DNA of 64,000 nucleotides from Bacteroidota bacterium (GCA_040755055.1 JBFMBS010000007.1:27444-91443), one strand, 5' to 3'. Positions 2,174-20,783 are shown, counted from the stretch's first letter. Notes: a model not told the origin generated them from the sequence alone. Translations and numbers: made by a program.

Positions 2174-3568
<1,395 letters not shown>

Positions 3569-3578
3569 AATTCTGAGT

Positions 3579-3596
3579 CCCCGACTTTAGTCGGGG
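3579..3596 (+). terminator. GC-rich hairpin downstream of gdhA (CCCCGAC-TTTA-GTCGGGG)
   Basis: 7-bp perfect stem 11 nt after the gdhA stop. No clear U-tract follows, so terminator function is inferred from position only. Confidence 0.35.
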
Positions 3597-3646
3597 CGAA
3601 GAATCTCTAGCTCATAATCTGTAATAATATAATTTATCATTCATAT

Positions 3647-3675
3647 AGTAGAGACGTTCACGGAACGTCTCTACT
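3647..3675. repeat. GTAGAGACG...CGTCTCTAC palindromic repeat (intergenic copy)
   Basis: agtagagacgttcacggaacgtctctact lies between the convergent gdhA and CocE/NonD genes and is followed by ttttta. It could act as a bidirectional terminator. Same family as 25149-25176, 25873-25897 and the two in-CDS copies. Confidence 0.7.
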
Positions 3676-3691
3676 TTTTATCAAACACAAA

Positions 3692-5659: not shown

Positions 5660-5904
5660 TTTATTATCGTTGAAATACAAAAAGAGTCTCATTGCCGGCA
5701 AATATATATAATTTGAAATTGACTCAATAGTTTTTTGTCTTGACGCCAGTCAATCCGCACCGTCTATGATTTCACTTCCAATAAAGTAATGGCACTGCTT
5801 CAATAGGTTAATTCAAAAAAACATATGGTTGGATGCACAAAAGCACAAAAAACGACACGAACGAAAGCAATCAAATATTGCAGTTGTAAAAAAAGTATGT
5901 GAGG

Positions 5905-5967
5905 TAAAACAAAAACCCGGCTCATTTCGAAACTGCTCCAAGTCATCGAAGGCGAAGTAAGCCGGGT
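5905..5967 (-). terminator. Probable intrinsic terminator of the LamG/phosphoesterase gene
   Basis: On the minus strand, ACCCGGCT ... AGCCGGGT forms an 8-bp outer stem with inner TTCGA/TCGAA pairing, followed by TTTTTGTTTT. It lies 26 nt after the stop at 5993. Confidence 0.5.
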
Positions 5968-5992
5968 CCAACCGACAGTCCTAATTCTAAAT

Positions 5993-8575
5993 TTATTTAA
6001 TTAGAACAAATTTCTTTGTATCGGTAAACGAACCGGCTTGTAATCTGTAAAAATATACGCCGCTTGGTAAAGACGTTCCATGGAACGTCTCTACATTAAA
6101 TTCCACCTTATATTTTCCCGGCTGCTTGTATTCATTGACCAGTGTTGCTACTTCTTTGCCAAGAACGTTGTAAACTTTTAAAGTTACAACCCCTCCCATA
6201 TTCCTCCCCTTACTAAGGGGAGGGACAGAGTGTGGGGTCGGTATTGTGTACTCTATTGTTGTTGCTGGATTAAATGGATTGGGATAATTCTGAGATAAAC
6301 TATAAGTAGTTGGTATATCAAGAGTGTTCGCTAAATAAGTAGTTATATTAAATGAAGTCGCATTAGACCATTCACTCCATTTGAGATTATGATCGCGGTA
6401 TTTAACTCTGTAAAAGTATGGAGTGTTCTTTTTAAACCTTGAATTGTTAAATGATAATTTTGTAAGATTGATCCCGTTATTTTTATCGATCGGGTTGAAC
6501 CCGGCATCTACCTGGTAAATATTTTCCCAATGAATCATTGTGTCGATAGCTGTTACGTTGAATTCTGAATTTTCGGAAATTTGGATTCTAACGGTCATCA
6601 ATGAATCATTTGATATCGGGGATGTATTAAAAGTAATCTGGCTTTCATTAATAGTAGGAATATCAGTAACCGGTTGTGCCGGTACCGGTTGATTAATTTT
6701 TATATACCAGCTATCCATAACCTCGTTATCCCTTGCTCTGCTTGTGTTACCTAAACTATACATTTTAGATTCGAAAGTTTTATTCGCAACATCAATTTCA
6801 ATAACCTGGTAGAAAAAATGATCGAGTGTTATATGAATATTGGAAAAATCCTGGTTCTGGTAAGCACCCCAGCGATCGATTGCGCCGCCGCCTCCACCGC
6901 CGCAAACAATTCTGAAATCTCCGCGTAATTCCGGTTTATCTGATTCTATTGTTCCTCTCTCAAAACCGTGTGTATGTCCGTATGAATACTGAATAACTTT
7001 TGAATATTTTTTTAGCAGAGGAAAAACCTGGTTCTTAATGTAAGACGGACCGCCATCATAAGTTATTCCTTCACCCCAGAGCTCTGTTATTGAGAAATGA
7101 TGACCAATAAGAAAAACAAAATCGATGCGAGGATTATTCTCTGCTTCATTGAGTTTTTGTTCAAGCCAAGTGTTTTGTAAAGTTTGAGATGCACCGGTTA
7201 GGTTTGTGTTCAGACCAATAATCATTGTATTTGCTATGACGGTTGACCAAAATTTCTCGGCAAATCCGTTTGGCGGAGGATAACCGGAAATATTATCGTA
7301 ATGCATGTACTTATAATAGTTTTGGTGTTCGCCTTCGTGATTGCCGGTCACGGTTAGAAATGGTATGTAAGGTGATAAGTGAGACATCGGTGCAAAATAT
7401 AATTTTGTCCACTCTGCAATTGAACTGCCGGTCACAACTAAATCGCCGGAATGTAATACCAAATTAACTTGATTGTGTATATCGTTGCCATAAATCTGCT
7501 GAATAGTTTTCTTTGATTCTTTAATTACCTTGACTGACTTTGTGGTGTCGCCGTTATGAGTATCGCTGAAGAGCAAAATTCTAATTTTGCCGTTATAATT
7601 TGAATCGGGAAAAGTCTTAAAATTATATATTGGTGAATTACCGGTTCCGCTGACTATTTTATAATAATATTCCTGGTTTGGCTGAAGACCGGTTAATTCA
7701 ACAGTGTGCCATCTATGCAAACCGAAAACAATTTCACTTGTGCCGGAAGCACTTTCTCCTAAAGAGGAAGTAGTACCGTAATCGACCCTTGTTAGGGTTG
7801 CAAGTGTATCGTGCCAGCAAACTATCATTGATGTTGCCGACGGGTTTTGCAAATAGGGGACTAAAAGTAATTGTGTTGAACCTTGTCCGGTGATTTGGTG
7901 ACCGTAACCTCCCAGATTTTTTATCTCTGTATTATCGAGCGGATAATTCCAGATAGCAATTTCTGCACAATCTATCTCACCGTCTTCGCTGTTATCATCT
8001 GCAAATAATAATAATTTACTCTCAAGAGAAAATCTTCCATCTATGGTTTGTGTATTGCCGGTTAATAATAAGTTGCCATCTAAAAAGTATTTGTATTGGA
8101 TCCCATTTTTTACAGAAATAACCAATCGATACCATTCATTTGGTTTAACCGAATAAGAAGAATACCCGGTAGCTGCAACACCTATGTTTCCACTTGGATT
8201 TATAAAACATTCACCGTCATTAGAATTTGTTAAGTTAGTTTGGAAGAAAGTGTACCAGGGTCCTAAAGTCTTAACTTTAAAATCGATCTGTATGGTGAAT
8301 TCATTTACGAATGTACCACCGCCGTTTGGAGAAATACCATGTGTGAGCGAATAAAAACTCCCAACACCGATAGTTATCGCGCCATTCTCGGCAGTAGGTC
8401 CGCTTGTTTCTTGATGGGTACCGATTAATTGTAGGTCTGTTCCGGTCTCTGCTTTAAGTAGGTTTGTGCTATCGTCAAATTTCCATAAACCGGTCTGTGC
8501 GTGTGCTTGTGCGAATAAATAAGATTGCCCGAATGTTATAGCAATAAATAAAATGATGTTGATAAGTTTTTTCAT
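5993..8575 (-). CDS. Secreted LamG-like module + purple-acid-phosphatase-like metallophosphoesterase + T9SS sorting domain
   Basis: Signal peptide MKKLINIILFIAITFG. The N-terminal module WKFDD...NDGECFINP...EIDCAE...LGGYGH is paralogous to the three modules of 12769-15009. Calcineurin-like motifs are present: LLFSDTHNG, SGDLVVTG, VTGNHE, IGHHF, GHTHGFE. Ends in a QNYPNPFNP sorting tail. The start was moved to 8575 because the 57 upstream codons of the ORF track lack signal-peptide character. Confidence 0.75.
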   Translation of the reverse strand: MKKLINIILFIAITFGQSYLFAQAHAQTGLWKFDDSTNLLKAETGTDLQLIGTHQETSGPTAENGAITIGVGSFYSLTHGISPNGGGTFVNEFTIQIDFKVKTLGPWYTFFQTNLTNSNDGECFINPSGNIGVAATGYSSYSVKPNEWYRLVISVKNGIQYKYFLDGNLLLTGNTQTIDGRFSLESKLLLFADDNSEDGEIDCAEIAIWNYPLDNTEIKNLGGYGHQITGQGSTQLLLVPYLQNPSATSMIVCWHDTLATLTRVDYGTTSSLGESASGTSEIVFGLHRWHTVELTGLQPNQEYYYKIVSGTGNSPIYNFKTFPDSNYNGKIRILLFSDTHNGDTTKSVKVIKESKKTIQQIYGNDIHNQVNLVLHSGDLVVTGSSIAEWTKLYFAPMSHLSPYIPFLTVTGNHEGEHQNYYKYMHYDNISGYPPPNGFAEKFWSTVIANTMIIGLNTNLTGASQTLQNTWLEQKLNEAENNPRIDFVFLIGHHFSITELWGEGITYDGGPSYIKNQVFPLLKKYSKVIQYSYGHTHGFERGTIESDKPELRGDFRIVCGGGGGGAIDRWGAYQNQDFSNIHITLDHFFYQVIEIDVANKTFESKMYSLGNTSRARDNEVMDSWYIKINQPVPAQPVTDIPTINESQITFNTSPISNDSLMTVRIQISENSEFNVTAIDTMIHWENIYQVDAGFNPIDKNNGINLTKLSFNNSRFKKNTPYFYRVKYRDHNLKWSEWSNATSFNITTYLANTLDIPTTYSLSQNYPNPFNPATTIEYTIPTPHSVPPLSKGRNMGGVVTLKVYNVLGKEVATLVNEYKQPGKYKVEFNVETFHGTSLPSGVYFYRLQAGSFTDTKKFVLIK

Positions 8576-8653
8576 AATGTTCCCGGAAGTATTACTGTTA
8601 ATAGTCAATTTTGATTTTATCATTGAAAAAGTAATTTGTAACGATGGGCAAAA

Positions 8654-8677
8654 CAATAGCACGTTTGTGGTATTTGA
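8654..8677 (-). promoter_or_regulatory. Conserved near-palindromic box (copy 1) upstream of the LamG/phosphoesterase gene
   Basis: The plus strand reads caatagcacgtttgtggtatttga, about 80 nt upstream of the start at 8575. In gene orientation the box is followed directly by TTGTTT, 17 nt, then TACTTT. Confidence 0.45.
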
Positions 8678-8749
8678 ATCTTGACGGGTGTAAATGCTTC
8701 TAATGGAAAAAACAAGTGGGGTAGTTATACCCCACTTTAGAATCAATTG

Positions 8750-11700
8750 TTATTTAATCAGAACAAATTTCTTTGTATCGATGAATGAGCCAGCTTTTAA
8801 TCTGTAAAAGTAAACTCCGCTTGAAAGGTTGCTTCCGTTAAATTTAACTTCATATTTGCCCGGTGTCTTTACTTCGTTAATTAATGTAGAAACCTCTCTC
8901 CCGAGTATATCATAGATTGTTAGTTGAACATTGCCGATTTCTGCAATATGATAATTTATTGTTGTAGTAGGATTAAATGGATTGGGATAATTCTGTAACA
9001 GTGCAAATCTAAGCGGAATTAGTTCGGTTCCATTTTCTTCAACACTAACTATATCCCTAATTGCAGCAGTTTTTATCTTCTCATAGTTCTCTACAATTTC
9101 TTCGGCACTTAATGCTCTGTTGAATATCTGGAGATTATCCATAGAACCTTTAAAATATGAAGGAGAATTTTTTGCACTTCTTCCGAGCCATGCTTCTTGT
9201 CCTGGTTTTACATCACCGGTTAAATTATGAGAATCTTTTAAAACACCATTTAAATAAACCATGGCTTTTGTACCATCGTACACGCCGACAACATTTATCC
9301 ATTGCCCGGTTATCAAATCGGTTTCAGGAATTCCCGGTCTTTCTGCGCCGGCGGTTGTGGATACTTTGAACCTCAACTCTTTATTCCCTTTGTCCGCATA
9401 TATAACATATTGATCACCGTCCGAATCGAACAACGGTCCGAATGAACCCGGCATTTCAGCCGGCAAATAATTTAAATTTACCCACAAAGAAACAGTTACT
9501 GCACTGCCGCCAATATCAAAAGAAGTAGAAATAGGGAATTGAACATAATCATCTACTCCATCGAACTGTAGTGCATTGCCGAGCAATCCTTCCGAAAGCA
9601 CCGTCCCATTTCGCAATGTTCCGTTATTTGCATTTGCTGTATAGTCGGTTAAAACACTATCGCTCTGGATACTATCCATACTGTAATAAGCGATAATATT
9701 TTCGGGCAAGTTTTTATGAGTGAATTTTACAGTATCCGGCAACATAGTATTTGATGCACTCGCTCTGTCTTTTACATTCTTAACGATTAATGTGTAAGTA
9801 TTCTCAGATAGAACTGATGTTGTTAGTATTACCGATTTCTGGTCTAAAGCCAACTCTGCATCTGATACGGTAGCATTATCAAGTGTATAATTAGCAATTG
9901 TCTCGCTGGTAGTTTGATCAACTTTTTCGTTAAACTCAACAACAAGTTTAGTTGTTTCTGCCCTGGAGGTTGTATTTAATATTTCAGGTTTGAAGAGATC
10001 CTGACCGGTAGCTGCGTTTAATTCATTGCTGAAATTTGCACTTAACAATGCAGAAGAATTTTTTGCCTTAATTCTATAGTAATAGGTTTTGTTTTCTTCG
10101 GTATCGGTATCGATAAATTCCAACACGTTTGCTGCGGTAGCATGTAAAGTTGTGGGTTCGGTTTGGGTATCCCGATAAATTTCATATCCAACAACAGTTG
10201 ATTCATAATTTACAACCGGCTGCCATTGTAATTTAATATACTGATCATCTAACTGGGCTGACGTAAATACTACATCTGTTGGTCTTGGATCTACCGGTGC
10301 AAGCTTTGTTGAATTATATAAATCCTCAACTTCTTCCCGGCTTAGAGCTGTATTCAATATCAGAACATTATCAATGCTGCCCTGGAAATAACTTGGAGAA
10401 CTTGTTGAACTACGACCAAGCCATGCAACTTGCCCGGTTTTGACCGTCCCGGTTAATTGATGTGAATCTTGCAGAACTCCGTTTAGATAAATTTTAGCAT
10501 AAGTTCCATCATAAACACCAACAATATGAATCCATTCATCAGCTGTAAGATTGCCGCCCGGTATTCCGGGTCTTTCGGCTGAAGATGATGTTGATACTTT
10601 AAACCTGAGTTCGTTGTTACCTTTATCTTCATAAAGAACATACTGATCGCTGTTTGAATCAAAGAGAGGACCGTATGCGCCGGGTAGATCAGCCGGCAAA
10701 TATTCTAACTTGGTCCAAAGGGAAACTGTTACTGCACTGCCGTTAATATCGAATGATGGTGAACTTGGGAATTCAACATAATCATCAACACCGTCGAATA
10801 GTAAAGCGTTGCCTAAGAAACCTTCAGAAAGCGTCGGCCCATTTTTTAGAACGCCGTTATTTTGGTTTGTGGATGCATCTGCTAAAACACTGTCTTGGGT
10901 AATTGCATCGATGCTGTAATAAGCCACCGTGCTTGCCGGCAAACTATTATGAATAAATATTGCTGTTGTAGTAACCATTGTATTTGGTGCAGCGGCTTTA
11001 TCTTTAACATTCTTAACAGTCAATTTATACGAATCTGCTGCCAATGCCGATGTGGTAAGGATAACCGACTTTTGATCTAATGCAAGCAGCGCTGATTCCA
11101 CAGTAACGGATTTATTGATTGTGTAATTATTTTTTGTCTCGGCAGTAGTTTGATCGACTCTCTCGCTAAATTCGACAACAATTTTATTATCCTCAGCGTT
11201 CGATGTTACATTTGTTAATGATGGTTTGGTAACGTCGGTTGTAGTAGCAGCAGAAACTTCATTACTGAAATTTGCGCTTAATAAACCGGCACCGTTAATT
11301 GCTTTAATTCTGTAATAATATGTCTGTGTCTCAGTGTAGGTTTCATCTGTAAATTCGGTTGTGTCACCAACAGTAGCAAGTAAAGTTGTTGGAGAAGGAG
11401 TAACATCACGGTAGATATTATAACCGGTTATATCACTTTCAGCATCGGATGCGGCTTGCCAGGTTAAAGCAATTTTTGTTTCTGATGGAGTAGCAGATGA
11501 TAATACAACATCGGATGGCGGTGTTGTGTCCGATACGATTTGCAGAGTCAACGGATTATCCGTAGTAATACCATCAACACCTAATTGCGATAAAGAAATC
11601 ATTTGCGAAGCGCTGTTAATAGTCCAGCTATTGAACTTCACATTTTTTGAGTGGGCATAATTCAAGAAATCGGTTGTAACTGTTCCACCGCTTCCGATCC

Positions 11701-12310
11701 ATTCTCCGCCGATTGCTGCAACTTGATCGATGCTTCCATTTGATGTTGTGCTTACAAATAATTGTACCGGTATAGTGTTATCTAAATTCTTGGATTCTGT
11801 AATCTGGCTTAATGTGAAACTTGATATGATTACACGGCTTTCCATATCAAGGTACTGAACCATATTTACAACTTTTTGAACAACACCGGCAGCCGTGGTT
11901 TTAATTTCAATAACAACACCAATATTGTTGGAACTGTTTTTTGCCAGCATTAACGATTCGTATAAAGTTGGAATTTTTTCACCGGCAAATGCCGCACTAA
12001 ATTTTGATCCGGCATCGTAAGTGCGAAGCTGTGCATACGTTAGCGAGCTAACACTGCCCGTACCGGTTGTTGTTCTGTTTATTGTGTTATCATGCATAAT
12101 CATCAGGGAATCATCTGCAGAAATTTGAACATCCAGCTCAAAATAGTCAGCACCGATATCAATTGCATTTGAGAATGCTGCTAAAGTGTTTTCAGGGGCG
12201 AGTGCTGCACCGCCTCTGTGAGCAATGTTTGCCACCTGGGCTAAATTGCCCACGGGCACAAGCAATGCCAGCATAAATGTAGCTGTAAAAAATAACTTGA
12301 TCATTTTCAT
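8750..12310 (-). CDS. Secreted glycerophosphodiester phosphodiesterase (GDPD) domain protein with 2x [FN3 - Ig-like - LamG] and T9SS sorting domain
   Basis: Signal peptide. GDPD motif: AHRGGAALAPENTLAAFSNAIDIGADYFELDVQISADDSLMIMHDNTINRTT. FN3 elements: YNIYRD..YYYRIKA. LamG-like elements: LLFDGVDDYVEFP...WIHIVGVYDG...IYLNG...GSIDNV. The tail has LLQNYPNPFNPTTTINY...GVYFYRLKAG. Confidence 0.8.
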   Translation of the reverse strand: MKMIKLFFTATFMLALLVPVGNLAQVANIAHRGGAALAPENTLAAFSNAIDIGADYFELDVQISADDSLMIMHDNTINRTTTGTGSVSSLTYAQLRTYDAGSKFSAAFAGEKIPTLYESLMLAKNSSNNIGVVIEIKTTAAGVVQKVVNMVQYLDMESRVIISSFTLSQITESKNLDNTIPVQLFVSTTSNGSIDQVAAIGGEWIGSGGTVTTDFLNYAHSKNVKFNSWTINSASQMISLSQLGVDGITTDNPLTLQIVSDTTPPSDVVLSSATPSETKIALTWQAASDAESDITGYNIYRDVTPSPTTLLATVGDTTEFTDETYTETQTYYYRIKAINGAGLLSANFSNEVSAATTTDVTKPSLTNVTSNAEDNKIVVEFSERVDQTTAETKNNYTINKSVTVESALLALDQKSVILTTSALAADSYKLTVKNVKDKAAAPNTMVTTTAIFIHNSLPASTVAYYSIDAITQDSVLADASTNQNNGVLKNGPTLSEGFLGNALLFDGVDDYVEFPSSPSFDINGSAVTVSLWTKLEYLPADLPGAYGPLFDSNSDQYVLYEDKGNNELRFKVSTSSSAERPGIPGGNLTADEWIHIVGVYDGTYAKIYLNGVLQDSHQLTGTVKTGQVAWLGRSSTSSPSYFQGSIDNVLILNTALSREEVEDLYNSTKLAPVDPRPTDVVFTSAQLDDQYIKLQWQPVVNYESTVVGYEIYRDTQTEPTTLHATAANVLEFIDTDTEENKTYYYRIKAKNSSALLSANFSNELNAATGQDLFKPEILNTTSRAETTKLVVEFNEKVDQTTSETIANYTLDNATVSDAELALDQKSVILTTSVLSENTYTLIVKNVKDRASASNTMLPDTVKFTHKNLPENIIAYYSMDSIQSDSVLTDYTANANNGTLRNGTVLSEGLLGNALQFDGVDDYVQFPISTSFDIGGSAVTVSLWVNLNYLPAEMPGSFGPLFDSDGDQYVIYADKGNKELRFKVSTTAGAERPGIPETDLITGQWINVVGVYDGTKAMVYLNGVLKDSHNLTGDVKPGQEAWLGRSAKNSPSYFKGSMDNLQIFNRALSAEEIVENYEKIKTAAIRDIVSVEENGTELIPLRFALLQNYPNPFNPTTTINYHIAEIGNVQLTIYDILGREVSTLINEVKTPGKYEVKFNGSNLSSGVYFYRLKAGSFIDTKKFVLIK
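9071..11521 (-). repeat. Internal tandem duplication (~411 codons x 2) inside the GDPD gene
   Basis: Residues ~264-672 and ~675-1080 align over their full length. Examples: YYYRIKAINGAGLLSANFSNEVSAAT vs YYYRIKAKNSSALLSANFSNELNAAT; LDQKSVILTTS occurs in both; NALLFDGVDDYVEFP vs NALQFDGVDDYVQFP. Confidence 0.85.
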
Positions 12311-12431
12311 TGAACCTCCTTATAGATAATTTATTTTCGGCTAACTTTTTATTTCAAGATAAACCGGGATAATAAAATTCTGTGTGGATTGATCTTCTAA
12401 TTGAAAAGATATAAGATTGAATAAATTTCGA

Positions 12432-12455
12432 CAATCGCACGTTTGTGGTATTTGA
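12432..12455 (-). promoter_or_regulatory. Conserved near-palindromic box (copy 2) upstream of the GDPD gene
   Basis: The plus strand reads caatcgcacgtttgtggtatttga, about 120 nt upstream of the start at 12310. In gene orientation it is followed by TTGTCG, 17 nt, then TATCTT. Confidence 0.45.
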
Positions 12456-12575
12456 TAGAGCAGAGATTCTCAATACTGTAAAATGGTGGGTAAGCAGAAA
12501 TATTTTTTTTTCTGAAAATATCCTTCGTAATTGAAATTAGCAACTTATCGCTTAAAATAAAGAGAATATTTTTGT

Positions 12576-12670
12576 CCTTCGTGTATCTTTATATCTTCTT
12601 CTTGTTTCTTCGTGAAATGACAATTTTCTTACACGAAGTTCCGCGAAGTAGGCACGAAGACCCACGAAGT
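12576..12670. repeat. Word-array repeat (TTCGTG words followed by inverted CACGAAG words)
   Basis: ccttcgtg and tcttcgtg are followed by acacgaag, cgcgaag, gcacgaag and ccacgaag. The arrangement could fold into a long imperfect hairpin. It lies just downstream of the stop (12769) of the triple LamG-like gene, at the far end of the GDPD gene's upstream region. ORF 12572-12805 is only its translation. Confidence 0.6.
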
Positions 12671-12768
12671 TGTAAGATTTATGCTGCCATAGAACTTAAG
12701 ATGATTAGACGAAAGGTTTTTATGAAACCCTCTCCTAAAATTACCGGAGAGGGTCCCAGATGGAGAGG

Positions 12769-15009
12769 CTATTTGAGTAAAATTAATTTCTTAGATAAGG
12801 AATAATTATCACTAATCATTCTATATATATAAACTCCGGATGCTAATCTGCTGCCGTCAAAATTGATTGTATAATAACCGGCATTTTTGTATCCATTCTC
12901 TATAACCGATACTTCGTTGCCGAGTATGTCATATAGCTTGATAGTTACTTGTGATGCCTTAGGAACCGAATAATTAATTGTCGTAGAAGGATTAAACGGG
13001 TTAGGATAGTTTTGCGATAGTGAATACTCAGTCGGAATTTTATTTGTAGATTCACCAACATCACTGATGACATGACCATAACCGCCAAGTGCAGTCACTT
13101 CACTGCTTGATAGCGCATAATTATAAATAGCAAGTTCAGCACAATCGATAATATCGTCTTCACCGTTTTCGTCGGCAAAAATTAAAAGTTCGCTGCCAAG
13201 AGCAAAACGCCCGTCTATTTGCTGAACTGTTCCGCTCAAAGCTAATGTGCCGTCAAGATAAATTAAGTAATGTGAAGCATTAAGAACCGAAACAACCATG
13301 CGGTACCATTCGTTGGGAATAATGGAATATTCGGTATAGCCGGTAGCTTGTACTCCAACCTTGCCGGAAGTATTAATGAAGCAATCGCCGTCATTAACAT
13401 TACCGGTGTTTGTCTGGAAGAAACAATGCCAGTTATCTAATGACGGAACTCTGAAATCGAAAAGTAATGTGTATTCGTTTACTGAAAATCCGCCGCCGTT
13501 GGGCAAGATACCATGATTCATTACGTAGTAACTTCCTATGCCGACTCTTGTAGCATAATTAGTTGGAGTAGGACCATCCATTGGTTCGTCATCGCCTACT
13601 AAAGTTAATGGCTGTCCGTTACCATCCGAAACTAAAAGATCAAATGGATTATCGAATGTCCATCTGCCGACTAATTTTTTTTCAACCGAACCGCCATTAG
13701 TTAAGTCATGACCAAAACCGCCTAACTGAGCAGCTTCGGATTCAGTAACGGCTATATCCCACATTCCGATTTCAGCAACATCGATTAGTCCATCATCACC
13801 ATCATTATCTCCAAACAGAATTATTTTATTTGCAAGCGCGAATCTGCTGTCAACGGATTGAACATTTGCTTCAAGAAGAAGCTGCCCATCAAGATAATAT
13901 CTGTAATGAGTACCATTCTTGACTGAAATAACCAAACGATACCATTCATTGGCAAGGACTTTGTATCCGCCATAACCGGTAGCGGCGGTTCCTATTTGTC
14001 CATCGGGATTTATAAAGCAATCGCCATCGCTTGTATTTGTTGTATCTGTTTGGAAGAACGTTCTCCATTTGTTGAGTTCGGAAACTTTGAAATCGAATTT
14101 TAATGTATATTCATTAACAAGATTTCCGCCGCCGTTGGCATTGATACCGTGGTTTACTTCATAATAACTACCTACATCAATTCTTACAGCTTTGTTGGTA
14201 GGTGTTGGGCCCTCGACGGATGAATGAGAACCGGTTAATTCTAAATCGTTTCCGTAATAAGCTTCCGTTAAACTGGATTCATAATCAAATTTCCAGAGAT
14301 TGACCGGCTGTAAATCTGCTTTTGGTAATTCGTGTCCGTAACCTCCAAGTGAAAGTATCTGCCCGCTTGTGAGAGCTGTATTCCAAATGGCAAGTTCCGC
14401 ACAATCAATTTCATTATCCTCGCCGTCTTCGTCTGCAAAAACTAACAAGATATCATCGAGAGCGAATCTTCCATCAATTGATTGAACAGTACCATCTAAT
14501 AATAATTGACCATCGAGATAGTATTTATAAAAAACTCCGTTTTTTACAGATACAACCAAACGGTACCATTCGTTAGGACTAATTGAAAATGAGCTGTACC
14601 CGGTAGCGGCAACACCAATCATTTCGGATGGATTAATAAAACAATCGCCGTCATTGGAATTGGTTGCACTTGTCTGAAACAGTGCATGCCACAAACTGAT
14701 TTCAGTTATCCGGATATCCATTTGTAAAGTGTACTCATTAACTAAAGTGTCCGGCGAGGGTGTGATACCGTGAGTCATCTTATAATGACTGCCAATTCCA
14801 ATATGAGTAGCACCGTTTTCCGCTGAGGGTCCGGAAACCGCTTCTTGAACTCCTACTAATTCCAATGCATTTCCAATTTCTGCTTTTGTAATGTTTGCAG
14901 CGTCATCGAATTTCCACCAGCCGGAACGCGTTGGAACTTGTGCTTGTGCTAACGAGAGAACTAAAAAGAAAATCATCAAACAATTAGTAATGAAAATGTT
15001 TTTTCTCAT
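12769..15009 (-). CDS. Secreted protein with three tandem LamG/ConA-like modules and T9SS sorting domain
   Basis: Signal peptide MRKNIFITNCLMIFFLVLSLAQA. Three ~200-aa repeats (aa ~31-226, 238-434, 449-646) share WKFD, NEYTL, FQT..N..DGDCFIN, ATGY, NEWYR.V.SV.N, YLDG, DGRFAL, IDCAE and GGYGH. The tail has SQNYPNPFNPSTTINY...GVYIYR. The LamG assignment rests on sequence resemblance only. Confidence 0.7.
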   Translation of the reverse strand: MRKNIFITNCLMIFFLVLSLAQAQVPTRSGWWKFDDAANITKAEIGNALELVGVQEAVSGPSAENGATHIGIGSHYKMTHGITPSPDTLVNEYTLQMDIRITEISLWHALFQTSATNSNDGDCFINPSEMIGVAATGYSSFSISPNEWYRLVVSVKNGVFYKYYLDGQLLLDGTVQSIDGRFALDDILLVFADEDGEDNEIDCAELAIWNTALTSGQILSLGGYGHELPKADLQPVNLWKFDYESSLTEAYYGNDLELTGSHSSVEGPTPTNKAVRIDVGSYYEVNHGINANGGGNLVNEYTLKFDFKVSELNKWRTFFQTDTTNTSDGDCFINPDGQIGTAATGYGGYKVLANEWYRLVISVKNGTHYRYYLDGQLLLEANVQSVDSRFALANKIILFGDNDGDDGLIDVAEIGMWDIAVTESEAAQLGGFGHDLTNGGSVEKKLVGRWTFDNPFDLLVSDGNGQPLTLVGDDEPMDGPTPTNYATRVGIGSYYVMNHGILPNGGGFSVNEYTLLFDFRVPSLDNWHCFFQTNTGNVNDGDCFINTSGKVGVQATGYTEYSIIPNEWYRMVVSVLNASHYLIYLDGTLALSGTVQQIDGRFALGSELLIFADENGEDDIIDCAELAIYNYALSSSEVTALGGYGHVISDVGESTNKIPTEYSLSQNYPNPFNPSTTINYSVPKASQVTIKLYDILGNEVSVIENGYKNAGYYTINFDGSRLASGVYIYRMISDNYSLSKKLILLK

Positions 15010-15101
15010 GATCCACCTTTTAAGTGATAATTGAGCTAACAGTTGTAATGGATTAATAAAAATTTTACCAAATATAATTTAGAAGGGGGATTAAAAAGCC
15101 A

Positions 15102-15125
15102 CAATCGCACGAACGTGGTATTCGA
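15102..15125 (-). promoter_or_regulatory. Conserved near-palindromic box (copy 3) upstream of the triple LamG-like gene
   Basis: The plus strand reads caatcgcacgaacgtggtattcga. It lies ~93 nt upstream of the start at 15009 and 6 nt after the response-regulator stop. In gene orientation it is followed by TTGTGG, 17 nt, then TAAATT. Confidence 0.45.
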
Positions 15126-15130
15126 CGGAA

Positions 15131-15781
15131 CTACAGTAAATTTTCTTTATATACTTTTGAAACAGCACCGGAACGGGTATTAACGTGAAGTTTATGATAG
15201 ATGTTTTTTATATGTGTGTTTACAGTATGAAAACTAAGGAATAGTTTATCGGCTATTTGCTGTTTTGTTAAGCCGGAAATTAAAAGCTGGAGTATCTCTT
15301 TCTCACGATCGGTTAGACCGTAATCCGTCTTTTTAGTTTTAAAGCGGCTGAACATTTCCAATACTTTATGGGCAATTTTCATATTCATTGGCGCTCCGCC
15401 GGCAAGTACTTCTTTTATCGAATCAATTATCTTTTCCGGCGGCGAATCTTTTAGTAAGTAACCGGATGCACCGTTACAGAGCGCTTCAAACACATTATCG
15501 TTGTCGTCATAAACTGTTAGGATTAATATGTGTGTGGAAGGGAAGATAGTTTTAAATTTATCGATGCCTTTGATACCGCTCATTCCCGGCAGACCTATAT
15601 CCATCAAAATAATTTCCGGCGCTTCTATTTCCGAAACACTATTTAATGCATCCTCGCAAGATGTGAAAGCATTTGTACATTTCATGCCTTCGGTTCTATT
15701 TATTAAACCGTACAATGTTCTTTGATAGCTAATGTTATCTTCGATAATAAGGACGTTAATCATTACTGTATTTTTTTTCAT
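15131..15781 (-). CDS. NarL/FixJ-type response regulator (REC + LuxR-type HTH)
   Basis: The receiver has VLIIEDN, ILMDIGLPGMSG and a later K. The C-terminal part, LTDREKEILQLLISGLTKQQIADKLFLSFHTVNTHIKNIYHKLHV, is a LuxR-family HTH. Confidence 0.9.
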   Translation of the reverse strand: MKKNTVMINVLIIEDNISYQRTLYGLINRTEGMKCTNAFTSCEDALNSVSEIEAPEIILMDIGLPGMSGIKGIDKFKTIFPSTHILILTVYDDNDNVFEALCNGASGYLLKDSPPEKIIDSIKEVLAGGAPMNMKIAHKVLEMFSRFKTKKTDYGLTDREKEILQLLISGLTKQQIADKLFLSFHTVNTHIKNIYHKLHVNTRSGAVSKVYKENLL

Positions 15782-15821
15782 TAATCTATGGTAAAAGATA
15801 AATTTTAAAATAGTATAAATT

Positions 15822-18800
15822 CTATACCACGTTCGTGCGATTCTTCTTTAGAAATTTTATTGATCTGAGAAATTCCCGGTAATCGTGAAGTTGTATTCTA
15901 AGTTCTATTGTCGTACCGATATTTACTTCACTTTTAATAAGTAAATCGGCGTGAATTTTCCCGGCTCTTCTTTTCATGTTTATCAGCCCGAAATTTTCAC
16001 TTGCATTGTCAATATCAAATCCTTTCCCGTTGTCTTTAATCCTTAAGATAAAATATTTTTGATCCGAGAGTAGTTCAATAGTGCATTTATTTGCATCGGC
16101 ATGGCGGATAACATTTGTAATAGCTTCCTTGAAAAGAAGGAAAATGTTACGCCTAATTTCAAGGTTAAATATTTCTAAGTTGATATCATCCTGAATAAAA
16201 ATATCCCAATTTATGTTGGAAAGAATTTTTGCTGCTGTTTCTTTAATTCTAAAAATAAAATTTTCGTTCAAGTCGTTTTTAGGATTAATAAACCAAATGA
16301 TATCCCTGAACGATTCTATCGTAACCTTAGCGGTTTTGCTGATGTTGGTTGATAGTTCCTTTTCGGTATTGGTAATAGAATTACTTGAAATCAGCGATTG
16401 ACTGTCCACGCTTATACTGCTCAGGTTGCTTCCGACTTCGTCATGAAGATCGCTTGCTATGTTTAAACGTATTCTTTCAATTTGCAGTAGTTGGTTCATC
16501 CGGTATTTGTAAATTGCAAAACCGGCACTTATTAAAAATAATACGGCAATTATTTTAAACCATAGAGTATTCCACCAGGAAGGTTTGATTATAATTTTTA
16601 GTAAAATTGGGTTGCCCCAATAACCATCTGCATTTGCTGCCTTAACAAGAAATTTGTACTCACCATATTTTATATCGGTATAAAAAGCCGTAGTTCTGTT
16701 ACCGGCTTGCACCCAAACCGGGTCGATTCCTTCCAGCATGTACATGTATTTATGTTTACTTTCCGGGAATAGGTCCAGTGCAATAAATTCTATCGAGAAA
16801 AAGTTTTGGTAATGTTCCAACACAATTTCTTTGGTTGTTGAAAGCGAATGCCGCAATGGAGTTTCAATATCGAATACCTTGAATGATGTTAAAATAACCG
16901 TTGGGGCGTTTTGGTCTATTGTTATTGAATCGGGATTAAAAGAAACAAATCCATCAATACCGCCGAAATACATTTTACCGTTTTTACTTTTGTAATAAGC
17001 ATGCCAATTGAATTGGTTATTAACTATGCCGTCATTCTTATCATATACTCTGTAATTACCGGTGTTAGGGTTGTATCTAACCAACCCGTTCATTGTACTA
17101 ATCCATAAATTATCTTTCTCGTCTTCAAGTATGCCGAAAACAACGTCATTCGGGAGCCCATTCAAAGTTGTGAAGTGATAAAATTTATTTTCCTTTTTAT
17201 CAAATTTATTTACACCGCCGCTGTGGGTGCCGAGCCAGATGAATCCTTTGCTGTCTTCAATTATTGAAGTGATTTTATTTGATGTAATTGAATACTCTTT
17301 TCTATCTGGTAGAAAATTATAGAGCATTTTTGAATCGGGATCATAACGGTAAAGCCCGTTCAGCCACGTGCCAATCCATAAATTGTTTTTGCTGTCTTCA
17401 TATAAAGCATTGATGGAAACGGTATCCGGGAATTTAATTGAGTTACTGGATAATACCGGTTTGAACGGATAAAATTTTTCTTTTTCACGATCAAAAATTT
17501 GGAGTGCATCATTAGTGCCGATAAGAAAAGTTCCGTCATGTGTTTCTAAAATTTGTTGTACCCAATTTGTTCTAATTCCATATTGGTTAGTTGGATCAAA
17601 CACATAATGTTTAAATGATTTTGTTCGTTTGTCAAACCGGTTAAGTCCGCCGTCATTTGTACCGATCCATAAAATGCCTTCCTTATCTTCATAAAGTGTT
17701 ATCACATCATTCGCAAACAGACTGTTTCTATTATTAGGATCATTTTTGTAATGAGTAATGATGCCGGTTTTAAGATTATAACCATCAAAACCATTTCCGT
17801 TGTAACCGATCCATAACAAATTATCTTTTCCTTCAATAATATTGCTTACAACTCTGCCCCCCAGACTATTTTTTCTTAAAGGCATGTAGCGGTGCTGTGT
17901 AAAAGATTTGGTAGAAGCAAGTTTGCCTAACCCATCTTCCGTTCCCAACCAAATATTCCCGATCTTATCTTCGTATATCCATCTTATCCGGTCGCATAAA
18001 AGCGAGTTCGGATCATCTTCTTCGTTTCTCAAATGAATTAACTGCAAATTGTTCGAATCGTTTTTTTCTAAAAGGTAAAGACCTTGGTAGTTGTAAGTCC
18101 CGATCCAGATTTTGCCTTTAGAGTCTTTAGTTAACTGTCTTATCGAACCGTAAAAATCCCGGTATCGGTCTTTTGGTATATAAGGATTAGAAATTATTTT
18201 TTTTGTGCCGAGATCAATTTTATCTAAACCGCTGTCGGTACAAATTATCATGGAGTTGTTGTTATCTTTGACTAAAAGCCAGACTGCATTATTGCTGATA
18301 GAATTTTTATTGCCGGGGTTATGCTGAAAAATTTCATAATCTTTTGTTTGAGTGTTGAACCTTAATATTCCCTTAGTCCAGGAACTGATCCAAAGATTAT
18401 TTTTTTCATCTTCAATGACAGATGTGATATTATTATCTAAAATTTTACCCGGTATTTTGTACTTATCTTTTAAGTAAAATATTTTGGAAGATTTTGGATT
18501 ATAGTAGTACAAACTGTTGTTGGCAGAGCCAACTAATATGTTGCCTTCTTTGTCTTCATCGATGAATTGTATGTAACTGTTGGAAGACTTCTCCAATTTT
18601 TCAAATGATTCATAGGTAGGATTGTATTTACACAGACCTCTGCCCCAGGTGCCAACCCAAAGTGTTTTATCTTTACTTTCGTATAAGTACATGATATAGT
18701 TCTCGGGTAAGGAGAGTGAATCATTCGGATTATGTTTGAACACTTTAAAATTATTGCCGTCGAACCTATTGAGACCGTCTTTCGTTGCAATCCATAAATA

Positions 18801-18965
18801 ACCGTCCGCTGTTTGGATAACGCAATTAACCGAGTTGTTGGATAATCCATCTTGAATATTGAAATGTTCAAACTGGTAAGTTGTTAGCTGGGGATAAGCC
18901 GTGCAATAACCAAGAATTAAAATTAATATTGAGTGCTTTAGGAAAGTCAATATTATTTTCTCCAA
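15822..18965 (-). CDS. Sensor histidine kinase with periplasmic two-component-regulator propeller repeats + Y_Y_Y domain, one TM, HisKA_3 and HATPase
   Basis: Many repeats of the form D..G.LWIGT..GL..F/Y. A Y_Y_Y-like region has GEYKFLVKAANADGYW. TM segment: WFKIIAVLFLISAGFAIY. The H-box ASDLHDEVGSNLSSI is HisKA_3, the NarL-partner type. The ATPase region has IKDNGKGF. Confidence 0.85.
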   Translation of the reverse strand: MEKIILTFLKHSILILILGYCTAYPQLTTYQFEHFNIQDGLSNNSVNCVIQTADGYLWIATKDGLNRFDGNNFKVFKHNPNDSLSLPENYIMYLYESKDKTLWVGTWGRGLCKYNPTYESFEKLEKSSNSYIQFIDEDKEGNILVGSANNSLYYYNPKSSKIFYLKDKYKIPGKILDNNITSVIEDEKNNLWISSWTKGILRFNTQTKDYEIFQHNPGNKNSISNNAVWLLVKDNNNSMIICTDSGLDKIDLGTKKIISNPYIPKDRYRDFYGSIRQLTKDSKGKIWIGTYNYQGLYLLEKNDSNNLQLIHLRNEEDDPNSLLCDRIRWIYEDKIGNIWLGTEDGLGKLASTKSFTQHRYMPLRKNSLGGRVVSNIIEGKDNLLWIGYNGNGFDGYNLKTGIITHYKNDPNNRNSLFANDVITLYEDKEGILWIGTNDGGLNRFDKRTKSFKHYVFDPTNQYGIRTNWVQQILETHDGTFLIGTNDALQIFDREKEKFYPFKPVLSSNSIKFPDTVSINALYEDSKNNLWIGTWLNGLYRYDPDSKMLYNFLPDRKEYSITSNKITSIIEDSKGFIWLGTHSGGVNKFDKKENKFYHFTTLNGLPNDVVFGILEDEKDNLWISTMNGLVRYNPNTGNYRVYDKNDGIVNNQFNWHAYYKSKNGKMYFGGIDGFVSFNPDSITIDQNAPTVILTSFKVFDIETPLRHSLSTTKEIVLEHYQNFFSIEFIALDLFPESKHKYMYMLEGIDPVWVQAGNRTTAFYTDIKYGEYKFLVKAANADGYWGNPILLKIIIKPSWWNTLWFKIIAVLFLISAGFAIYKYRMNQLLQIERIRLNIASDLHDEVGSNLSSISVDSQSLISSNSITNTEKELSTNISKTAKVTIESFRDIIWFINPKNDLNENFIFRIKETAAKILSNINWDIFIQDDINLEIFNLEIRRNIFLLFKEAITNVIRHADANKCTIELLSDQKYFILRIKDNGKGFDIDNASENFGLINMKRRAGKIHADLLIKSEVNIGTTIELRIQLHDYREFLRSIKFLKKNRTNVV
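15823..15842 (-). promoter_or_regulatory. Conserved near-palindromic box (copy 4, opposite orientation) upstream of the response-regulator gene
   Basis: The plus strand reads tataccacgttcgtgcgatt, the reverse complement of copy 3 at 18 of 20 positions. It lies ~42 nt upstream of the regulator start and overlaps the last codons of the kinase ORF. Confidence 0.4.
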
Positions 18966-19170
18966 TGAGCTACCTAATATTAACCAAAAAAAGTTTTTTT
19001 AGCTTAAAAAATATTATGACGGATTCATCGAGCAAATTGCTCGATCGACAAATAATATCCGGCAAAAGGTGATTGTGAATTAATCAGTCGGGGAATGTTT
19101 TAGTCGTAGTAGGAATCATCTATTAGAAGTTGTGGACCAAACCTGGGTTCGATCCACAACAATTTGTATA

Positions 19171-20556
19171 TCAGTTGGGTCTGGTAACAAAAGAAAATGT
19201 ATATGGTGTTTTCATATTAGTCCCATGCATATCTTTTATAGCAGTAGAAATTGTTATAGTGTATTTTGTATTTGCTTGCAAAGCACTGTTCGGCTGAAAT
19301 ACAATCTTATCCATTTGTTCGTATGGATAATAGCCATCATAATAAATAGTCCCGCTAATTTGAGGCGAAATAGAAATTGCAGCCCTAGCCGAAGTTAATG
19401 TAATGTAATTATTGAAAGACATGCGGATCGGTTCTGTTGGTGATACAAACAACTGTCCATTGTTCGGGGAAGTATAAGTTATTCCAAGTTCGGCAGTTTG
19501 AAATGAAAATGTAAATGTATGCCCGAGTTTTACACCATCTTTATCTTTTGCCGTGCTGTCTATAGTTACAGTAATCGTAGTATCCGACATAAATGGTCCG
19601 CCGGTATATATACGTAATTTATTTTCTTCAGGCCAAAGAAGGATAGTATTCATTTGCGGTGTTACATGAGTGGACATTTCAACAGAAGTTTTATCCATAC
19701 GTCTTGGGAAAGTTACGGTAATTCCGCTATATGCATAGTATAATGGGGAAATATTAATATCACCGTGTACCGGGTCGGTTTGAATACCATTTTGTGTCGA
19801 ATAGGATTGTACTGTTTTAAACTTGAAATGCAAAGGAAATCGTAAATGATTGCCGGCTGTATCCTTAGCGGTTGTATTAATTGTGACAGTATAAGTTGTA
19901 TCGGTAAAGGAATCTTTTTTGGAGAAGTAGTATGTCATTGAAGTTACTTTGCTGTATGTAGTAATCGTAGCACTTTTATCAAAATATGAATCCGATGGAT
20001 CGGTAAAAAATGAATTCACCGGTGCATGTGTATAGTTACCCCAATGAAAAATTCCTTCAGTAGGAGGATTAGTAGAAAAAGCTGCTTCAACGCTTTCTCT
20101 ATCCATAGGTGAAGTAAATAATATTGAAATGGTTATTCTGCCGTAACGCCAATCATATACAATTTCATCGTTGTCCTCAGGATAGTGTTCTTCAATCAAA
20201 TCCGGGACAGTCGATAATTTTATTTCACCAAAATAAATAATACTGCCGCCGTTTAACATAACGTTGGTTCTCTTATAAATACGATAATTATCGGCCTTAA
20301 TTGTTACATCGTAATTACCGCTTCTAATGTTACGGAATTCAAAAGTGCCGTCGGCCGAATTAATTTCTACTGAATCGATGGGCGCGGTTTGGCTTATTAT
20401 TACTTTTGCTTTACTATCCTTTTGAACTACCTTGCCTATTAAATCAGCATGAAGTAGATCATTTGTGAATTCTTTCGGTATTTGTTGTTCAACTATTGTT
20501 TCTTTACAGCCGAAGCAAATAATAATTATGGAAAAAATTAGTAGGAAAGTTTTCAT
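19171..20556 (-). CDS. Lipoprotein with carboxypeptidase-regulatory-like domain and three Ig-like (SbsA/Big_5-like) domains
   Basis: MKTFLLIFSIIIICFGC is a lipobox. GTFEFRNIRSGNYDVTIKADNY is CarboxypepD_reg-like. Repeated ..MD+.SVE...P...G....Y.VTI...A.D..GN.. units follow. The start was moved to the internal Met (residue 22 of the ORF track). Function unknown. Confidence 0.5.
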   Translation of the reverse strand: MKTFLLIFSIIIICFGCKETIVEQQIPKEFTNDLLHADLIGKVVQKDSKAKVIISQTAPIDSVEINSADGTFEFRNIRSGNYDVTIKADNYRIYKRTNVMLNGGSIIYFGEIKLSTVPDLIEEHYPEDNDEIVYDWRYGRITISILFTSPMDRESVEAAFSTNPPTEGIFHWGNYTHAPVNSFFTDPSDSYFDKSATITTYSKVTSMTYYFSKKDSFTDTTYTVTINTTAKDTAGNHLRFPLHFKFKTVQSYSTQNGIQTDPVHGDINISPLYYAYSGITVTFPRRMDKTSVEMSTHVTPQMNTILLWPEENKLRIYTGGPFMSDTTITVTIDSTAKDKDGVKLGHTFTFSFQTAELGITYTSPNNGQLFVSPTEPIRMSFNNYITLTSARAAISISPQISGTIYYDGYYPYEQMDKIVFQPNSALQANTKYTITISTAIKDMHGTNMKTPYTFSFVTRPN

Positions 20557-20783
20557 GTTGCCCCTCCTATTTCTTATGGAGTACAGTAATAATCTAACTT
20601 TAGTGGAACAATTATTCAATGAAAAAATTTGGTGTGATAATTAAGACCGGATTTCTTATCGTATCTGGAAATAATTTTTGTGTGAAGATTCTCATCCATG
20701 TTATATAACAATATCGGGAGAAAATTTATTAGTAACATAAATTCAACTTTAATACTTTTGTCATCATAAAATAATTTCTATCT

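Follow-up and report, generated by a model that had tools for sequence, protein, structure and literature searches.

Four conserved boxes as likely operators of a NarL/FixJ-type two-component system at type IX secretion cargo genes of a Bacteroidota bacterium

A stretch of 64,000 nucleotides from a Bacteroidota bacterium (GCA_040755055.1 JBFMBS010000007.1:27444-91443; hereafter the window, with positions counted from its first letter) carries four copies of a near-palindromic box close to the genes of a two-component system. These boxes are in all likelihood the operators of the adjacent NarL/FixJ-type response regulator, encoded at 15131-15781 on the minus strand, from which it would drive three type IX secretion system (T9SS) cargo genes as well as its own gene. 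In the mechanism that we propose, the sensor histidine kinase encoded next to it (15822-18965, minus strand) would sense a ligand from outside the cell or from the periplasm, which may be a fragment of a glycan or phosphoglycan, by means of a sensor domain of the type found in the hybrid two-component systems (HTCS) of Bacteroides, and would phosphorylate the regulator. The phosphorylated dimer would bind the 7-2-7 inverted repeat TACCACG-WW-CGTGSKA, whose promoter-proximal end carries the TTG of the -35/-33 element and whose centre would lie ~43.5 bp upstream of the predicted transcription start, and, once bound, would recruit RNA polymerase to four promoters. Three of these would yield type IX-secreted proteins, namely a GDPD phosphodiesterase, a LamG-metallophosphoesterase and a triple-LamG protein, and the fourth would serve the regulator's own gene and thus provide positive feedback. 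The regulon of the source organism is defined here within the window, and functional statements about the system rest on comparative sequence evidence.

Throughout the 64 kb, the pattern ATNGCACGWWYGTGGTAT is matched without mismatch at 8656-8673, 12434-12451 and 15104-15121 on the plus strand and at 15824-15841 on the minus strand, which is where an earlier note on this DNA had placed its four boxes. The chance expectation with up to two mismatches is 0.07 matches, none of 100 shuffles contained four or more copies, and three permitted mismatches brought up no additional locus within the 64 kb. A weight matrix built from 46 related sites likewise returned, at a low threshold, the same four window sites and nothing in 20 shuffles; to the question of whether the box occurs at similar density elsewhere, both scans thus give the answer that the rest of the window is without it. 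The dyad itself was correctly recognized in the earlier note, but its formula has to be amended in two respects: the centre comprises 2 nt (CACG-WW-YGTG) and not 3, a core pattern with a 3-nt centre having no match in the window, and the right arm of boxes 1 and 2 reads TGTG instead of CGTG. All sites share a layout of two inverted 7-bp elements separated by 2 bp (TACCACG-AA-CGTGGTA / TACCACR-WW-YRTGCGA). The boxes precede start codons of minus-strand genes by 79, 122, 93 and 42 nt, in keeping with the 40-120 nt given before. Read in gene orientation, i.e. on the minus strand, and together with their embedded TTG, box 1 (ATACCACAAACGTGCTATTG, 8654-8673), box 2 (ATACCACAAACGTGCGATTG, 12432-12451) and box 3 (ATACCACGTTCGTGCGATTG, 15102-15121, 10 nt past the regulator stop codon) are the predicted operator/-35 regions of the LamG-phosphoesterase, GDPD and triple-LamG genes, respectively. 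Box 4 (ATCGCACGAACGTGGTAT, 15824-15841, also on the minus strand) has AG instead of TG behind it, falls within the final seven codons of the kinase open reading frame (ORF) and is the predicted operator of the regulator's own promoter.

How far is this arrangement preserved beyond the window? Relatives of the regulator number in the thousands; the best 120 are 64-94% identical to it, the named ones coming mostly from Ignavibacteria(les), and within the orthologous group there is hardly any variation in the recognition helix SFHTVNTHLKNIY.KLHV. Nine orthologous loci, fetched via the protein alone (L001, L003, L083, L086, L089, L091, L093, L095 and L096), share the order kinase, regulator and T9SS cargo, the latter being GDPD-LamG, LamG-phosphoesterase, LamG, CE2 esterase or GH16. 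The presence of the box at orthologous loci had been named as a test, and it was found at the equivalent position in all nine of these independently fetched loci: 20-130 nt past the regulator stop codon, in gene orientation and upstream of T9SS cargo, with a second box ahead of the regulator gene in most of them. In the reverse test, the 20-mer ATACCAYRWWYRTGCGATTG was searched in 185,579 species, each represented by one genome, and returned 87 sites in 85 stretches (the scan's own chance estimate, which assumes equal base frequencies, is ~17). Directly upstream of 36 of these 87 exact matches, on the same strand, there is a regulator ortholog (50-88% identity), its stop codon usually 22-220 nt away, so that the scan of related genomes that had also been called for speaks for the box as well. 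The 36 regulator-linked sites come from at least 32 different assemblies and have the form ATACCAC-R-WW-Y-R-TGCGATTG, always in the same orientation.

Among the genes downstream of the regulator-linked sites (n=33, many of them cut off by the ends of 8-kb pieces), GDPD was found in 16/33, Laminin_G_3 in 16/33 and a T9SS tail in 17/33. The commonest target of the box across species is thus a secreted GDPD protein with LamG domains, followed by secreted LamG-metallophosphoesterases with a purple-acid-phosphatase N domain and then by LamG-only proteins, CE2 esterases and GH16 enzymes; judged from these neighbourhoods, the GDPD gene would be the core target. The window's own arrangement is not carried by any locus from the species-genome scan. 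In loci of more distant regulator relatives (40-53% identity, 533 kb), the matrix gave two weak matches, each next to the gene for the regulator and each with altered half-sites, and a metagenome scan with the regulator alignment, which among the matches listed gave mostly 40-50% relatives, served as a negative control and for a scan of architecture. Taken across species, the box would be a conserved promoter operator.

The alignment of 46 non-redundant cargo-type sites places the box ATACCAC-R-WW-C-R-TGCGATTG (positions 1-20) behind a CAAA flank and reveals one further block at positions 41-47, with frequencies of 0.80 for T41, 0.83 for A42, 0.87 for T45, 1.00 for T46 and 0.63 for T47. The resulting TAnnTT(T) makes up the only conserved columns outside the box and its flank, and it begins exactly 20 nt past the box-terminal TTG. 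Candidate -10/-7 elements lie at this distance in all three cargo promoters of the window, on the minus strand: TACTTTTT at 8626-8633 for the LamG-phosphoesterase gene (predicted start ~8621), TATCTTTT at 12404-12411 for the GDPD gene (~12399) and TAAATTAT at 15074-15081 for the triple-LamG gene (~15069). The series TTGTnn, 17 nt, TAnnTT in the earlier note is present in the window cargo promoters as described there, and its spacing is fixed across the 46 sites; as for the claim that the box abuts the -35 element, the adjacency stands, but the two in fact overlap, for the 'caat' with which the note ended its boxes represents the ATTG in which the proposed -35 TTG is contained. In Bacteroidetes, the -7 box of sigma-A promoters, TAnnTTTG, spans -12 to -5 (PMC9723704), and a TTTG is found near -33 (PMC7366714). 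In promoters of this type, ~19-21 nt separate the -7 box from the -33 TTTG/TTG. With the TA set at -12/-11, the start falls at position 53, the TTG occupies -35 to -33 and the dyad extends from -52 to -35; its centre at about -43.5 is thus inferred from the fixed 20-nt spacing in conjunction with the published -12 to -5 box. The promoters would accordingly match the TTG / TAnnTT(T) type of the Bacteroidetes primary sigma factor; upstream of window genes, TAnnTTTG has six matches, too few promoters for enrichment. As to other promoter classes, the GG-N10-GC arrangement of a sigma-54 promoter is absent from the box on either strand.

A comparable picture emerges upstream of the regulator gene, where a box was found in 23 orthologous loci, 70-117 nt before the aligned regulator start, with the consensus AAAT(G/A)CCAC-R-AAC-G-TGGTAT-(G/A)G. 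These boxes are followed by TAnnTT at positions 41-46 (T46 1.00, A42 0.91), i.e. with the spacing of the cargo sites, and have TGG/TAG in place of TTG, which implies for the regulator gene a putative promoter that depends on the box and has a poor -35-like element, in line with what one would expect under positive autoregulation. The distal arm of box 4 in the window reads ATCGCAC, because of which the box looks like an inverted cargo box, and a candidate -10/-7 element, TATCTTTT, lies at 15793-15800 on the minus strand, separated by 21 nt from the terminal G of box 4. No box promoter is found before the kinase gene. The earlier note had supposed that kinase and regulator form an autoregulated switch driving a block of secreted T9SS cargo: autoregulation is indicated for the regulator gene, which is boxed here as in the 23 loci, and not for the kinase gene, and the regulon as such gains support from the in silico tests, binding and activation being inferred.

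Which known system does this most resemble? At the Escherichia coli yeaR promoter, a single 7-2-7 site for NarL (TAACCAATAAATGGTA), centred at -43.5 just upstream of the -35 element, suffices for activation, and, as seen in a cryo-electron microscopy structure, recruitment there proceeds via the C-terminal domain of alpha (PMC10853779). The likeness extends to the regulator family (receiver plus GerE helix-turn-helix), the inverted heptamers 2 bp apart with outer TAC/GTA, and the single dimer site per promoter just upstream of -35 with a centre deduced at ~-43.5; the position that the earlier note had called activator-like would hence be the same as in the solved NarL activation complex, although activation itself would here be by analogy. 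The differences are equally clear. The window heptamer is TACCACG (TACCACG-WW-CGTGGTA), as opposed to TAACCAA..AATGGTA at yeaR. Compared with TACYYMT, the heptamer found in the NarL/NarP regulon of E. coli, it has no more than the outer TAC/GTA and a single C in common, which makes it an analogue of distinct specificity and no site of the NarL regulon, and the residues aligned with NarL K188/V189 are N/T in the window regulator. The window promoters are of the TTG / TAnnTT(T) type of the sigma factor of the Fibrobacteres-Chlorobi-Bacteroidetes (FCB) group and not composed of sigma-70 hexamers, with the proximal arm fused to the TTG; and in the window kinase a large beta-propeller takes the place of a NarX-type nitrate sensor, with secreted hydrolases as targets. 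By this analogy, the box would work as NarL does at yeaR, without membership of the NarL regulon. GerE-type dimers that bind an 18-20 bp dyad overlapping -35 and centred at about -42 (class II-like), with positive autoregulation, are familiar also from LuxR/TraR at the lux-box/tra-box, where geometry and feedback are the same as those predicted here, except that LuxR and TraR are acyl-homoserine-lactone receptors, not phosphorylated receivers, and that the box sequence is unrelated.

That the box is bound by the adjacent regulator is, on comparative grounds, very probable, an assignment that follows from the co-variation of recognition helix and half-sites, from the architecture in distant relatives and from an association in Odoribacteraceae. 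All orthologs with the helix HTVNTH go with ATACCAC..GTGCGATTG, i.e. with CCAC/GTGC half-sites. Four loci whose helix reads HTVTTH (L093, L182, L183 and L184) have instead ATACC(T/G)C-RAAY-GAGGGATTG after the regulator gene, and three of them (L093, L183 and L184, with none in L182) also have ATACC(T/C)T-N-ATTGCGGTATGG before it, the TAnnTT spacing being unchanged. The change from HTVNTH to HTVTTH is thus accompanied by one from CCAC/GTGC to CCTC/GAGG, and the residue concerned aligns with Lys188 of NarL, which contacts bases (PMC10853779). A search for the architecture alone, blind to half-site sequence (an AT-dyad, TG, 20 nt and TAnnTT), yielded in 1.07 Mb of distant-relative loci four matches, against none in the shuffle, and all four lie within ~100 nt of the gene for a regulator relative (47-53% identical) as a dyad ending in ATTG, 20 nt and TAnnTT. 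The half-sites are ATACTAC..GTAGGAT at L006 1398, ATCGCAC..GTGGGAT at L008 3557, ATCACGC..CGTGAT at L010 178 and ATTACCC..GGGTTAT at L012 8232; L010 and L012 have recognition helices of their own, and L006 and L008 share SPSTVLTH despite their different half-sites. These four loci would constitute a natural specificity series. In two Odoribacteraceae genomes, finally, the 20-mer recurs with its usual spacing, flanked on one side by a cysK-like gene and on the other by a divergent gene that encodes a 214-aa GerE-family protein (L153 4539-5180 and L158 3476-4117, minus strand). This protein has a degenerate receiver-like N-terminus, with FILADNQ instead of the DD pocket, and a recognition helix, LSFHTINTHRKNIF, of the same type as that of the window regulator, to which it is 40% identical over 62 residues.

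Several points nevertheless weigh against reading the boxes as activating operators of this regulator. The -10-like element after box 4 lies one base beyond the family norm, and, if Met7 is not the true start, the regulator transcript would have a very short 5' leader of ~7 nt. Ignavibacteria-type sites do not conserve the G of TAnnTTTG; Bacteroidales sites do. The assignment of the box to the regulator rests on comparative genomics, and the co-variation of helix and half-site within the orthologous group comes from a single clade and represents one evolutionary event. The same 20-mer also occurs in Bacteroidales (Prevotella, Dysgonomonas) before genes of cysteine metabolism, where the 8 kb retrieved contain no regulator of this kind, which means that the box alone is not diagnostic of the window's two-component system. 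Finally, operator and TTG have one base in common, and the operator covers about -52 to -35, so that steric repression is feasible and the arrangement could equally serve a repressor.

This last point leads to repression as the main open alternative to activation: the same regulator, sitting on the same boxes, would block RNA polymerase at the -35/-33 TTG until a signal or dephosphorylation released it. The cargo promoters, which already possess a consensus TTG and a reasonable TAnnTT(T), would suit such a mode. Against it stand the spacing to the -10-like element, which is invariant in the 46 + 23 sites as is typical of an activator's face-of-helix contacts, and the regulator's own promoters, which keep the box without the TTG (TGG/TAG) and look activator-dependent. 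Phosphorylated NarL/FixJ-type regulators at such sites are, moreover, mostly activators, and the geometry is identical to that proven to be activating for NarL. We therefore regard a repressor as unlikely and, on account of a helical phasing that does not vary, of autoregulated promoters that lack the TTG and of the precedent set by NarL, activation by the regulator as probable.

Could the box be read by a different protein altogether, encoded elsewhere, such as a global LuxR-type or other dimeric factor of the FCB group, with the proximity of regulator and box reflecting conserved gene order? The 20-mer and its spacing before cysK-like, SDF-transporter and Cys/Met PLP (pyridoxal phosphate) enzyme genes in Prevotella, Segatella and Dysgonomonas, where the 8 kb retrieved around the sites hold no regulator ortholog, would fit this idea. 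It is hard to reconcile, however, with the GerE protein that neighbours the box in the two Odoribacteraceae and has the same recognition helix, with half-sites that change along with the helix of the adjacent regulator (in the HTVTTH clade as in the distant relatives), with the box at the regulator's own gene and with 36 sites right behind a regulator gene; we consider a foreign factor very improbable at the present locus and binding by the adjacent regulator the far better account. One particular candidate, a Pho box for PhoB/PhoP, was considered because the targets are phosphoesterases and was rejected, given that the element is an inverted and not a direct repeat and that the regulator is of the GerE type and not an OmpR/PhoB winged-helix protein.

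The Bacteroidales sites form an observation in their own right. They are L116 608-627, L108 6206-6225, L109 6814-6833, L171 1040-1059 (minus strand), L153 5248-5267, L158 4187-4206, L173 4234-4253, L154 5358-5377 and L134 7763-7782, they come from gut and environmental Prevotella, Segatella, Odoribacteraceae and Dysgonomonas, and they consist of the 20-mer, 20 nt (21 in L158) and a TAnnTTTG-type box, which is a full match in most and TATCTTCG in L158. Downstream of them lie genes for cysK-like PALP enzymes, SDF-family transporters and a Cys/Met PLP enzyme, and a SusD gene. Judged by these targets, the sites look like an undescribed cysteine/sulfur amino-acid regulon with the same operator; a literature search on a LuxR-cysteine regulon in Bacteroidetes found nothing relevant.

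The two remaining explanations have practically no probability left. The palindrome might act as RNA or single-stranded structure, for instance as a terminator or stability hairpin of the upstream gene, since copies lie just 3' of the stop codons of same-strand genes and the sequence is a dyad. Its centre of only 2 nt, the weak folds of the four sites (-1.3 to -7.6 kcal/mol, no better than shuffles, z -1.2 to +0.8), the lack of a T-run past the box, variable positions Y7/R12 that fail to co-vary in the manner of base pairs (both C..A and T..G are found) and the absence of any Rfam match (3000-21000, E <= 1) all run counter to this; besides, a separate, genuine terminator-like hairpin with a T-run (8714-8737, minus strand) directly follows the GDPD stop codon ahead of box 1 and would separate the GDPD transcript from the next box promoter. 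That the copies are functionless chance matches or relics of a recent local duplication, for which one could cite the single base by which boxes 1 and 2 differ and the LamG and sorting domains shared by the cargo genes (some local duplication did occur), is already refuted by conservation, the box being kept in at least 32 other species and the surrounding intergenic sequence not, as well as by the chance expectation and by flanks that are unrelated among the four boxes outside ~24 conserved nt, so that these cannot be remnants of duplicated upstream regions.

The gene identities given in the earlier note are right by Pfam. The sensor histidine kinase (Reg_prop, Y_Y_Y, HisKA_3 and HATPase_c) begins with an N-terminal signal/transmembrane segment, followed by a ~750-aa periplasmic part made of a Reg_prop beta-propeller and Y_Y_Y, a transmembrane helix, and HisKA_3 plus HATPase_c. 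Its start codon is uncertain (a TTG at 18965; the near-identical locus L001 is called five codons shorter). Among solved structures, the periplasmic part matches the sensors 4A2L (E 5e-100), 3V9F and 3OTT of Bacteroides HTCS proteins, and the kinase core has DesK/VraS as its closest solved relatives. The pairing of kinase and regulator is kept in nearly all orthologous loci, L095 being without an adjacent histidine kinase. The regulator, of 216 aa, contains Response_reg (E 3e-19) and GerE (E 5e-18) domains and the recognition helix SFHTVNTHIKNIYHKLHV; an ATG at 15763, Met7, is a possible real start. VraR, NarL (1A04, E 2e-24), DevR and DesR are its closest solved relatives, with full-length alignment to the NarL and VraR structures, and the receiver residues E14, D15, D61, T89 and K111 are invariant in 30 orthologs, D61 aligning with D59 of NarL.

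Set beside known two-component systems, this pair combines features of several. Its Reg_prop + Y_Y_Y periplasmic sensor is homologous to that of Bacteroides HTCS proteins (BT4663; 4A2L/4A2M, 3V9F, 3OTT), which bind products of glycan breakdown and turn on loci for degradative proteins that are secreted or sit at the surface. HTCS proteins, however, fuse kinase, receiver and AraC domain, whereas the window polypeptide stops after HATPase_c and is a separate, classical kinase with a DesK-like HisKA_3 core; since its output, a separate NarL-type regulator, is neither fused nor AraC-type, it is not a hybrid system, and the targets are T9SS cargo and not SusC/D-type utilization loci. DesK-DesR and VraS-VraR resemble the pair in kinase core and regulator, the latter binding inverted repeats as dimers, but they sense the state of the membrane or cell wall via transmembrane segments, without a large periplasmic sensor, and their regulons are unrelated. 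PorX-PorY is a two-component system of the same superphylum that is likewise tied to T9SS-dependent proteins. PorX, with its PglZ/alkaline-phosphatase-like output, controls genes of the secretion machinery via SigP, whereas the window system would control individual cargo genes through a DNA operator.

All three box-controlled cargo genes, which lie on the minus strand, encode a Por_Secre_tail above the Pfam cut-off. The triple-LamG gene (12769-15009) has three Laminin_G_3 domains and a T9SS C-terminal sorting domain. The GDPD gene (8750-12310) combines GDPD, two LamG, Ig-like/fn3-like spacers and the sorting domain; solved relatives of its GDPD domain include 2PZ0, 9EUF (the 'ORF58' GP-PDE protein, 848 aa) and GlpQ of Bacillus subtilis (5T91). 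With residues 1-270 of the product, 'ORF58' (9EUF, 9F49) forms the second-best structure group, ahead of GlpQ, a ranking that may hint at a phosphodiesterase activity directed at polymers and not at small molecules. The LamG-phosphoesterase gene (5993-8575) encodes LamG-like, purple-acid-phosphatase N and calcineurin-like metallophosphoesterase domains before the sorting domain; its real start is the ATG at 8575 and not the TTG at 8746, the protein has no sequence relative among solved structures, and its orthologs follow the regulator in L083, L086, L089, L093, L095, L096, L182 and L183. A further T9SS gene, for an S15 peptidase (3692-5701), has no box upstream in the weight-matrix scan and is for that reason not counted in the regulon.

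Three side observations concern the surroundings. The minus-strand sorting domains of the S15 peptidase (3692-4000) and the LamG-phosphoesterase (5993-6301) are 83% identical over 102 aa and both contain a PSVSHLTKGRDMGGV-like insertion that is missing from the other two cargo genes, which suggests that the tail may have been exchanged recently between these neighbouring genes. On the other side, the kinase gene adjoins a Big_5 gene (19171-20619), beyond which the window, L001 and L083 all have a gene (20784-23780 in the window, plus strand, 998 aa) whose product contains a PPDK_N (PEP-utilising) domain and a region weakly resembling a receiver, followed by an aminotransferase gene; no box is associated with this pair. 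At 12576-12670, some four CTTCGTG copies 10-11 nt apart face two or three CACGAAG copies, and the array folds as a long imperfect hairpin (-30.7 kcal/mol, z -3.0). Because a similar array stands in an intergenic region of a related genome that is unrelated to this one (L083 4915-5010), it looks like a repetitive extragenic palindrome (REP)-like element and would not be part of the box system.

What might such a regulon be for? An HTCS-type sensor, secreted phosphodiesterases and lectin-like domains, seen together in these sequences, suggest an induced attack on phosphodiester-containing glycopolymers. A more far-reaching joint reading, which would couple inducible, secreted harvesting of phosphodiester glycopolymers with a portable regulatory module of the FCB group, is doubtful. 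In its first half, the polymer may be a teichoic-acid-like poly(glycerol phosphate) from dead cells, with the system switched on by a propeller sensor that detects breakdown products; if this were true, uncultured Ignavibacteria would gain a defined role in scavenging necromass. In its second half, the helix SFHT(V/I)NTH.KNI and the operator ATACCAC-N4-GTGCGATTG fused to the promoter TTG may represent a portable regulatory module of long standing in the FCB superphylum, which may have been re-used in gut Bacteroidales, with a degenerate and probably non-phosphorylated receiver, for genes of cysteine and sulfur amino acids (cysK, an SDF transporter and a Cys/Met PLP enzyme).

The kind of mechanism is textbook, a conventional gene switch; what is new is the operator, the exact geometry that it has in a promoter of the FCB type, its set of targets, how broadly it is conserved and the correspondences between helix and half-site. 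A literature search on this type of kinase and regulator and on T9SS regulation in Ignavibacteria found nothing relevant. A two-component system that is widespread in Ignavibacteria-like bacteria would thereby receive a concrete operator, promoter geometry and target set, and a Bacteroides-type glycan sensor domain is linked to a classical NarL-type output. The pairs of helix and half-site (N to T with CAC to CTC, plus the distant relatives) provide a small natural data set on DNA reading by GerE domains, and the same operator before cysteine genes of gut Bacteroidales points to an undescribed regulator there. For the biology of these bacteria, it would mean that individual type IX secretion cargo genes can have dedicated transcriptional control.

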